Assembly: GCF_003991155.1 (NCBI RefSeq)
Contig: NZ_CP031293.1
Length of the DNA: 64,000 bases
Strand: one strand, 5' to 3'
Origin: Escherichia coli
Lineage (GTDB): Bacteria > Pseudomonadota > Gammaproteobacteria > Enterobacterales > Enterobacteriaceae
This document shows positions 31,310 through 33,635 of the stretch, in pieces (position 1 is the stretch's first letter; each line of letters starts with the position of its first letter). The position numbers were made by a program, and so were the translations under genes. The notes beneath the pieces were generated by a model. It was not told the DNA's origin, did not search any database, and saw only the letters and a program-made list of their open reading frames with translations.

Positions 31310-32635
31310 ATGAGCAAAGTAACTCCCCAGCCGAAAATCGGCTTTGTTTCCCTTGGCTGTCCGAAAAACCTTGTCGATTCAGAGCGTATTCTCACCGAAC
31401 TACGCACTGAAGGTTATGACGTGGTACCGAGCTATGACGATGCGGACATGGTGATCGTCAACACCTGCGGCTTTATTGACAGCGCGGTACAAGAATCACT
31501 GGAAGCCATTGGTGAAGCGTTGAATGAAAACGGCAAGGTAATTGTGACCGGTTGTCTGGGGGCAAAAGAAGATCAGATCCGCGAAGTCCACCCGAAAGTG
31601 CTGGAAATCACCGGGCCTCATAGCTATGAGCAGGTTCTGGAGCACGTTCATCACTACGTGCCAAAACCGAAACACAACCCATTCCTGAGCCTGGTGCCAG
31701 AACAAGGCGTGAAACTGACGCCGCGTCATTATGCCTATCTGAAAATTTCTGAAGGCTGTAATCACCGCTGCACCTTCTGCATTATTCCGTCTATGCGCGG
31801 CGACCTGGTGAGCCGTCCGATTGGCGAAGTGTTAAGTGAAGCGAAACGTCTGGTTGATGCGGGCGTTAAAGAGATTCTGGTGATCTCGCAGGATACTTCC
31901 GCGTATGGCGTCGATGTTAAACATCGTACTGGCTTCCACAACGGCGAGCCGGTAAAAACCAGCATGGTCAGCCTGTGCGAACAGTTATCGAAACTGGGGA
32001 TCTGGACACGTCTGCACTACGTTTACCCTTATCCGCATGTGGACGACGTCATCCCACTGATGGCAGAAGGCAAAATCCTGCCGTATCTGGACATTCCGCT
32101 GCAGCACGCCAGCCCGCGCATTCTCAAACTGATGAAACGTCCGGGTTCTGTAGATCGCCAACTGGCGCGCATTAAACAGTGGCGCGAAATCTGCCCGGAA
32201 CTGACCCTACGCTCAACCTTTATTGTTGGCTTCCCTGGCGAGACGGAAGAAGATTTCCAGATGCTACTCGACTTCCTGAAAGAAGCACGTCTGGATCGCG
32301 TTGGCTGCTTTAAATACAGCCCGGTTGAAGGTGCAGACGCCAATGCCCTGCCTGACCAGGTTCCGGAAGAAGTGAAAGAAGAACGCTGGAACCGTTTCAT
32401 GCAGTTGCAGCAGCAAATTTCCGCCGAGCGCCTGCAAGAGAAAGTGGGCCGTGAAATTCTGGTGATTATCGACGAAGTGGACGAAGAAGGCGCGATTGGT
32501 CGCAGCATGGCAGATGCACCGGAAATCGACGGCGCGGTTTATCTCAATGGTGAAACCAACGTTAAGCCGGGTGATATCCTGCGTGTGAAAGTCGAGCACG
32601 CCGATGAGTACGATTTGTGGGGTAGCCGGGTTTAA
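31310..32635 (+). CDS. rimO: Ribosomal protein S12 methylthiotransferase RimO
   Basis: 441 aa; radical-SAM CxxxCxxC (CNHRCTFC); recognised sequence. Confidence 0.9.
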
Positions 32636-32808
32636 TTAATTTAAAGGCAGATCTAACAAGGATATTGTTCTTCGATCTGCCTCTGCTACCCTTCCCGATG
32701 TCCTACCCTTACGCACAAAATCCCCTGACGCATAAATCGAGAAAAATGTATCGTACTCGAGGCAACTCTCACTTTTTCACACCAAATTAAAGTTTTGATC
32801 GCAATTAC

Positions 32809-32844
32809 TTGAAATAAGCGTAATGGTTACTATAGTAAACATTA
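32809..32844 (+). promoter_or_regulatory. Putative promoter and operator of the toxin-antitoxin operon
   Basis: TTGAAA (32809) - 16 nt - TATAGT (32831); a 24-bp near-perfect palindrome taatggtTACTATAGTAaacatta (32821-32844) overlaps the -10; SD aagga 7 nt before ATG 32861. Confidence 0.5.
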
Positions 32845-32860
32845 CCACAAGGATGGATGT

Positions 32861-33247
32861 ATGGGTGTGTATAAGGCAAGACGATTCAGCCAAAGCACGA
32901 AAAAACTTGGTATTCACGATAAAGTTCTCATGGCTGCCGCTGAAGAAGTGATGCAGGGCATATGGGAAGCTGATTTAGGTAGCGGTGTCATCAAAAAACG
33001 TTTACCCCTCCAACAAGGAAAGAGTGGTGGAGCCAGAACAATTATCTTTTTTAAATCAGCAAATCATGTGTTTTTTTATGATGGTTGGTCCAGGAGTGGT
33101 CTAAGCAGTAAAGGAACCAAAGAAATCGAAGATGATGAACTGGCGGCCTACAAAAAAATGGCAAATGCATTTCTGGCCTTTAGCAATAAGCAAATAGAGG
33201 ATTTGATCGAAACTGGCTTTTTGATTGAGGTGAAAAATGAGCGATAA
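32861..33247 (+). CDS. Type II toxin, HigB-2 / RelE-ParE superfamily (Gp49-like), 128 aa
   Basis: Core GSGVIKKRLPLQQGKSGGARTIIFFKSANHVFFYDGW resembles the HigB-2/Gp49 motif as I recall it; small basic protein; 11-bp overlap with the downstream HTH gene; accessory insertion relative to K-12. Confidence 0.7.
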   Translation: MGVYKARRFSQSTKKLGIHDKVLMAAAEEVMQGIWEADLGSGVIKKRLPLQQGKSGGARTIIFFKSANHVFFYDGWSRSGLSSKGTKEIEDDELAAYKKMANAFLAFSNKQIEDLIETGFLIEVKNER

Positions 33248-33566
33248 ATTACAAATGATGCTGGAAGATGCAAAGGAACTGAATGCACTGGGCCTGATGT
33301 CTGATAGTGAAGTTGATGCCATTGCCGTCATGGTCAAAGCTCGTGAAGTCAGCGCCCGTATAGCCAAAGTCAAATCAATGACGGGTGAAGAGATCAAAGC
33401 CATCCGCACCCGATACGGCATGTCACAATCCGTGCTGGCACATACAATGGGAATGTCAAAAGAAAGTGTCTCGAAATGGGAACGTAATGAAATAAAACCG
33501 AGCGGCCCGGCATTACGTATTTTGAATACATTGGCAATAAAAGGGCCGGAAGTTTTTGCAAAGTAA
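33237..33566 (+). CDS. XRE-family HTH antitoxin (HigA-2-like), 109 aa
   Basis: C-terminal HTH (IRTRYGMSQSVLAHTMGMSKESVSKWERNE); translationally coupled to the upstream toxin-like ORF. Confidence 0.7.
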   Translation: MSDKLQMMLEDAKELNALGLMSDSEVDAIAVMVKAREVSARIAKVKSMTGEEIKAIRTRYGMSQSVLAHTMGMSKESVSKWERNEIKPSGPALRILNTLAIKGPEVFAK

Positions 33567-33635
33567 AATGTTTGCAAATGATTTACCACATTCATTAGTA
33601 CCCCTTGATTAAGGGGTACTAACACTATTCTAATT

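Follow-up and report, generated by a model that had tools for sequence, protein, structure and literature searches.

A Probable HigBA-2-Family (PF06296) Type II Toxin-Antitoxin Operon Between rimO and dgcI on the Escherichia coli Chromosome

Gene Organization of the rimO-dgcI Interval

Two small overlapping genes lie between rimO and the convergent dgcI in a stretch of 64,000 nucleotides of Escherichia coli DNA (contig NZ_CP031293.1 of assembly GCF_003991155.1), referred to here, at its full length, as the window. Together they very probably constitute an intact and conventionally organised chromosomal type II toxin-antitoxin operon of the family represented by HigBA-2 of Vibrio cholerae (PF06296), an assignment that is directly supported by the structure of the genes, the families of both proteins, the fold, the conservation of the pair and of an upstream palindrome, and the distribution of the locus. 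The open reading frame (ORF) list of the window gives an upstream ORF for the toxin and a downstream ORF for the antitoxin, both of them intact, each preceded by a Shine-Dalgarno-like sequence and sharing 11 bp (Table 1). Two coupled small genes in toxin-first order had already been described in a first-pass annotation made from the sequence, and this description holds, with the qualification that the region it delimited (32636-33635) is the whole intergenic interval, the genes themselves covering only 32861-33566. Both genes stand well beyond chance, since they match Pfam families with E-values of 4.8e-32 (toxin) and 3.4e-9 (antitoxin), the toxin has 923 homolog clusters, and the pair is kept at 72 of 80 loci.

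RefSeq already contains an annotation of the pair, and structural and biochemical work has characterised its family. In E. coli 2016C-3878 (NZ_CP029747), which is 100% identical, the first product is named "type II toxin-antitoxin system RelE/ParE family toxin" and the second "helix-turn-helix domain-containing protein". The names HigB-2 and HigA-2 also occur in automated annotation of E. coli genomes (PMC10304320), possibly for the present locus.

Toxin Family, Fold and Active Site

Profile searches of the kind proposed in the first-pass annotation identified the toxin as a full-length member of PF06296 ("RelE"), residues 1-124 aligning with model positions 1-120 of 120. V. cholerae HigB-2 (Q9KMA6) belongs to this family, whose members cut mRNA on the ribosome and show a toxin-first gene order (PMC11980606); for HigB-2 itself, mRNA cleavage in the A site and plasmid stabilisation have been reported (PMC11980606, PMC5416850). 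The homologs were counted as representative clusters in an exhaustive search (E<=1e-3), and all toxin homologs found carry PF06296. When a profile built from 109 members of these clusters was compared with the PDB, HigB-2 chains were the sole significant matches (E ~2e-9). An AlphaFold model computed on the family alignment reached a predicted local distance difference test (pLDDT) score of 91.8 and adopts the RelE/BECR fold closest to V. cholerae HigB-2, the HigB2 chains ranking first in Foldseek. The earlier assignment of the first gene to the RelE/ParE superfamily is therefore borne out by family, profile and fold. An NCBIfam scan of the toxin gave no match, and a PHROGs scan gave only a weak partial match to a family of unknown function.

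The same annotation had recognised the stretch GKSGGARTIIFFKSANHVFFYDGW (toxin residues 53-76) as being of "Gp49/HigB-2" type, and the first half of that label has to be dropped. PF05973, the Gp49-like family, is absent from the Pfam matches of the toxin even at E<=10, a threshold at which no second toxin family, ParE_toxin included, was found, and HigB-2 has been placed in PF06296 (PMC11980606). An Acinetobacter baumannii toxin of the Gp49-domain type is also named HigB2 (PMC5906591), and the use of one name for two families probably explains the confusion.

The active site of V. cholerae HigB-2 consists of Arg51, Arg64, Tyr82 and Lys84 (PMC5416850). The profile alignment, with residue counts for each column, equates Arg51 with toxin R47 (Arg in 107 of the 109 sequences), Arg64 with R59 (Arg in all 109), Tyr82 with W76 (aromatic in 104/109, mostly Phe) and Lys84 with position 78 (Lys in 107/109). 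The toxin also carries a basic Gly/Lys-rich loop between beta2 and beta3, QQGKSGGA; in HigB-2 this loop has been tied to ribosome binding (PMC5416850).

Antitoxin

In the antitoxin, the HTH_3 match in Pfam falls on residues 53-94, which agrees with the C-terminal XRE-type helix-turn-helix (HTH) domain noted earlier. Its closest solved relative is V. cholerae HigA-2, found in the PDB with the single sequence (E 6e-4) and as the best match of a profile built from 36 partner proteins (E 7e-13), the HTH positions coinciding. The structural model (pLDDT 93) shows N-terminal helices at residues 2-17 and 23-41 followed by a five-helix HTH domain. By analogy, the N-terminal helices are the part likely to bind the toxin, and a layout of two N-terminal helices plus HTH has also been given for the antitoxins of PF_RelE modules (PMC11980606).

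Three other assignments were tried for the antitoxin and rejected. For the MqsA family (TIGR03830) the score was 47.1 bits against a cut-off of 61.8; the match is confined to profile positions 51-122, the HTH half, in keeping with weak Pfam-level matches to the HTH half of MqsA, and the antitoxin lacks Cys pairs such as those of the N-terminal CxxC zinc domain of that family. Of two further NCBIfam models, YiaG (PRK10072) gave 26.7 bits where 110 are required, and NadS (NF041265) gave 36.7 where 60 are required.

Predicted Promoter, Putative Operator and Flanking Hairpins

A sigma-70-like promoter lies ahead of the toxin gene, and a 26-nt palindrome covers its -10 hexamer (Table 1). The upstream alignment took in two Kluyvera species, the metagenome-assembled genome (MAG) UBA5654 and another MAG of the Enterobacterales. 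In Kluyvera and UBA5654 the -35-like and -10 blocks have aligned counterparts; the core of the palindrome, TTACTATAGTAA, recurs unchanged in the four closest upstream regions and with one altered base in a fifth, within surroundings that cannot be aligned. Its outer GTAAT/ATTAC arms are mostly retained in the aligned regions, and the sequence further upstream is not alignable. Many members of the family carry similar palindromes 16-31 nt before the start codon, and in many of the more distant ones a palindrome of different sequence is found equally far from it. Such conservation over a promoter fits the usual autorepression by a dimeric HTH antitoxin, with the caveat that palindromes containing TATA can partly mirror the -10 hexamer itself. 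The core occurs once in the window, where a search for a second copy of the putative operator found none.

Hairpins flank the pair on both sides. The stem-loop that follows the rimO stop codon probably represents the 3' hairpin of rimO, or else an insulator, and the perfect stem between the two convergent stop codons is likely to be a two-way transcript-end hairpin. Neither was called by the terminator scan, because both are without a T-run. A scan of positions 32400-33900 against Rfam (E<=1) returned nothing, with no sign of a known small RNA or of a type I/III antitoxin RNA. A 196-amino-acid (aa) antisense ORF (33101-33691), opposite the two conserved genes, is most likely spurious.

Table 1. 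Coordinates of genes and sequence features at the rimO-dgcI locus (positions in the window).
Feature	Position	Strand	Description
rimO	31310..32635	+	
Interval between rimO and dgcI	32636..33635		
Variable segment	32642..33636		995 bp, whole module; 41-bp hairpin spacer in empty-site E. coli genomes
Stem-loop after rimO stop	32645..32682	+	Inverted repeat; -16.2 kcal/mol, z -3.0; no T-run
Sigma-70-like promoter	32809..32836	+	TTGAAA, 16-nt spacer, TATAGT; 10/12 consensus matches; consensus match only
26-nt palindrome	32820..32845		Halves GTAATGGTTACTA and TAGTAAACATTAC; over -10 hexamer; 92% complementary inverted repeat; putative operator for dimeric HTH antitoxin
Shine-Dalgarno-like sequence (toxin)	32849..32853		AAGGA
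Toxin gene	32861..33247	+	128 aa; PF06296 / HigB-2 family; RefSeq WP_000539524.1
Codon 78 of toxin gene	33092..33094	+	AGG (Arg); Lys in family and in common E. coli allele; equivalent of V. cholerae HigB-2 Lys84
Shine-Dalgarno-like sequence (antitoxin)	33227..33230		GAGG
Antitoxin gene	33237..33566	+	109 aa; helices 2-17 and 23-41, putative toxin-binding part; residues 50-107, XRE helix-turn-helix; RefSeq WP_001280945.1
Toxin/antitoxin gene overlap	33237..33247		11 bp
HTH_3-encoding region	33393..33518	+	Antitoxin residues 53-94, E 3.4e-9; family profile aligns region with HigA-2 residues 38-94
Hairpin between antitoxin and dgcI stops	33595..33622		Perfect 12-bp stem, 4-nt loop; between antitoxin stop and convergent dgcI stop; -17.7 kcal/mol, z -6.2 (+); -19.3 kcal/mol, z -4.2 (-); no T-run
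dgcI (end)	33636	-	

Distribution and Genomic Context

Within E. coli the module is an accessory element. Pairwise BLAST against strain g94, in which the site is empty, showed flanks that are identical as far as position 32641 and again from 33637; in place of the intervening 995 bp, g94 has 41 bp with a hairpin of their own, in a rimO-dgcI spacer of 46 bp in all. The segment is present in 1128 of 5426 complete E. coli genomes (21%), O157:H7 strains included, and always at the same locus; most of the remaining complete genomes match the flanks only. This agrees with the first-pass description of an accessory module at a site that has only a short spacer in K-12, and the 41-bp spacer is that of K-12-like genomes. 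Matches of at least 99% in the "plasmids" collection proved to be records of chromosome size (4.9 Mb) or, at 730 kb, one that contains dgcI, and plasmid copies at that level of identity were rejected; the real plasmid homologs, in Providencia, Moellerella and Xenorhabdus, are about 70% identical at the DNA level.

That the module was "inserted" at this site, as the first-pass annotation had it, is not established, because its relatives share the rimO-gsiD neighbourhood in Kluyvera and in one other Enterobacteriaceae genome. A search of the interval found no transposase or integrase, and no direct repeats were found flanking the 995-bp segment. The segment has a guanine-plus-cytosine content of about 41%, lower than in rimO (about 52%) and similar to that of dgcI and pdeI. 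Gain of the module and its loss from most E. coli are equally likely. The module directly adjoins gsiD in Kluyvera georgiana and K. sichuanensis; in UBA5654, an Enterobacteriaceae MAG, both it and an unrelated 316-aa ORF stand between rimO and gsiD. Between these genomes and E. coli the flanking proteins are 88-96% identical, and the toxin and antitoxin 67-76%.

Beyond these genera, a scan of one genome per species yielded 80 loci with toxin relatives, from Enterobacterales to Legionella, Burkholderiales and Spirochaetia. At the 72 that keep the pair, the start of an antitoxin homolog lies only a few bases from the toxin stop codon, and the two reading frames usually overlap. The more distant relatives have no common neighbourhood; a contig location was sought for the Photorhabdus homolog P0032 and was not found. 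The absence of a shared neighbourhood and the plasmid homologs at about 70% identity indicate that the family is mobile in general, and the sub-lineage of Escherichia, Kluyvera and UBA5654 has stayed in one chromosomal neighbourhood across genera.

Several further observations concern the same region. The 316-aa ORF of UBA5654 (contig positions 2238-3188) stands between rimO and the pair; in K. georgiana phosphotransferase system (PTS) genes flank the pair there instead. The DNA downstream of rimO and bssR seems to vary from genus to genus. A third, rarer haplotype of the interval occurs in E. coli STK78-E (contig positions 4384-5081), in which rimO is followed by an IS1 and then by gsiD, dgcI and pdeI being missing; another IS1 copy is located close to gstB, and the IS1-mediated loss of dgcI and pdeI is unrelated to the module. 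In the window dgcI is split on the minus strand into a 363-aa ORF (33636-34727) and a 97-aa ORF (34660-34953), RefSeq describes the gene as frameshifted in 2016C-3878, and g94 has an intact gene of 442 aa; the DgcI diguanylate cyclase has probably been lost in the lineage of the window. At five Spirochaetia/Treponema loci the PF06296 toxin is followed by a partner of 65-70 aa with no detectable similarity to the HTH antitoxin, which suggests that antitoxins have been swapped within the family. A 1198-bp contig binned as a Collinsella MAG carries a copy of the module that is 99% identical and is most likely an E. coli binning contaminant.

Comparison with Known Systems

HigBA-2 of V. cholerae (PDB 5JA8, 5JAA, 5J9I and 5MJE) is the nearest characterised system: it belongs to PF06296 and provides the best PDB match for both proteins and the best fold match. 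The two systems share the toxin-first order, an antitoxin composed of an N-terminal part, putatively neutralising in the E. coli protein, and a C-terminal HTH domain, a toxin with a basic Gly-rich loop between beta2 and beta3, and an Arg/Arg/aromatic/basic active-site pattern. They differ in length, HigB-2 having 110 aa and the E. coli toxin 128, with an insertion behind beta4 (residues 79-90) and a pair of helices at the C-terminus, and in setting, the E. coli module occupying a fixed chromosomal site whereas HigBA-2 is a superintegron cassette.

The PF_RelE modules described as "relE-yiaG" (PMC11980606; E. coli VREC0535) likewise combine an upstream PF06296 toxin with an antitoxin that has N-terminal helices and an HTH domain resembling that of HigA-2. 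Their toxins have extended disordered N-termini, whereas the present toxin matches Pfam from residue 1 without an extension, and the present antitoxin, as its PRK10072 score shows, is no YiaG ortholog. Gp49-type toxins (PF05973), such as those of A. baumannii HigBA2 and of Tad-Ata, have in common with the E. coli toxin the RelE/ParE superfamily, the toxin-first order, an HTH antitoxin and the name HigB2 (PMC5906591), but belong to another Pfam family. The E. coli K-12 systems MqsRA and HigBA (YgjNM) are also toxin-first with a toxin of the RelE superfamily, and the HTH part of MqsA is the weakly similar portion mentioned above.

Proposed Mechanism

Toxicity, RNase activity, neutralisation, operator binding and any biological role are proposed for the E. 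coli pair by analogy with its characterised relatives. A single promoter would produce a two-gene transcript. The toxin would act as a RelE-fold, ribosome-dependent endoribonuclease that enters the A site by means of its basic loop and cuts mRNA under translation. The antitoxin would be translated from a start codon overlapping the last codons of the toxin gene; its N-terminal helices may bind and inactivate the toxin, and its dimer, through the C-terminal HTH domain, may repress the operon by binding the palindrome that covers the -10 hexamer. Were the antitoxin degraded or no longer made, free toxin would be expected to halt translation.

Alternative Explanations and the Arg78 Allele

Several points weigh against the assignment to an intact HigBA-2-type operon. 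Literature searches found no experimental study of the E. coli pair. A phmmer search of the PDB with the toxin as a single sequence returned nothing at E<=10, so that its link to HigB-2 is one of profile and fold, at only 11-12% identity in structural alignments. The antitoxin N-terminus is modelled as two helices, whereas that of V. cholerae HigA-2 is disordered and becomes a helix plus a strand once bound (PMC5416850); because of this difference the geometry of neutralisation may not be that of the V. cholerae complex. In the active site, the window toxin has Trp76 instead of the Tyr82 of HigB-2 and is the sole member with Arg at position 78 among the 109 aligned sequences. In addition, frameshifted toxin copies or copies with in-frame deletions exist in E. 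coli (P0013, P0024, P0025 and P0038), which indicates that the toxin is dispensable.

The last two of these points feed the most serious rival explanation, that the module of this strain is a remnant, attenuated or inactive. The change from Lys to Arg at position 78 would then impair the RNase, and what is maintained would chiefly be an HTH regulator that represses its own operon and has a harmless partner. The residue is Lys in the common E. coli allele (alleles P0001-P0005), O157:H7 included, and in the Kluyvera proteins, and K84A was the most damaging change made in V. cholerae HigB-2, lowering activity 3000-fold (PMC5416850); decayed toxin alleles are known in E. coli, as just noted, and the adjacent dgcI is frameshifted in this strain. 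However, the exchange of Lys for Arg retains the charge, and E. coli RelE has an Arg81 that is structurally equivalent to Lys84 (PMC5416850), so that Arg78 may still work. Both reading frames are moreover intact, and the Arg78 sequence is a lineage allele and not a sequencing error, since, of 735 complete genomes with a match, 50 contain the exact 57-mer around its codon, their origins being human, animal and wastewater, and the exact protein occurs on at least 1000 contigs of a large collection, as expected of an allele stably kept in a widespread lineage. The Arg78 allele of the window may be weaker than the common Lys78 allele; taken as a whole, the remnant explanation is possible but doubtful.

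An anti-phage, abortive-infection function is unlikely. Some pairs of the RelE/ParE superfamily have been discussed as defence toxins (PMC11980606), and the HTH domain of the antitoxin weakly matches HTH components in PADLOC; these matches, however, are to generic HTH, and the toxin matches none of the PADLOC-DB 2.0 families at E<=0.1. The flanking genes (rimO, dgcI, pdeI and the gsi genes) are housekeeping and cyclic di-GMP (c-di-GMP) genes and form no defence island, and the locus is fixed in place without mobility genes. Of 50,697 phage records, only one contains a homolog of the toxin, a distant one at 36% identity, in Escherichia phage PhiR12_3 (PV340552.1, 4340-4657), where it is annotated as hypothetical. 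The first-pass annotation had mentioned abortive infection or stabilisation as roles of such modules; a defence role or a phage origin finds no support in these data, and the plasmid stabilisation reported for higBA-2 concerns V. cholerae (PMC11980606), the E. coli copy being chromosomal.

It has also been considered, as a rather improbable reading, that the module is not a selfish insertion but a long-resident, partly domesticated rimO-gsiD element, kept at one position across Escherichia, Kluyvera and a related genus, with Arg78 marking a naturally tuned-down toxin and an HTH antitoxin that might also regulate the neighbouring biofilm and c-di-GMP genes bssR, dgcI and pdeI; the shared gene neighbourhood and the Arg78 allele are the only pointers in this direction. 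That the toxin is a ParE-like DNA gyrase poison and not an RNase is highly improbable, as its closest relative by profile and fold is an mRNase, the family conserves all four positions of the RNase active site, and Pfam gives no ParE_toxin match.

Implications

An intact HigBA-2-type operon thus remains the preferred explanation of the two genes. Its significance beyond correct annotation is small, and the finding holds no surprise for the specialist; the pair is properly named as HigBA-2 or PF06296-type and not as Gp49-type, a distinction worth making since "HigB2" covers two families. The points of local interest are limited to the Arg78 allele and to the conservation of position across genera. 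The locus could act as a lineage marker in E. coli, given its presence in about a fifth of the complete genomes at a single site, and the natural Lys78/Arg78 polymorphism constitutes a ready-made test of the catalytic role of this residue in the HigB-2 family.
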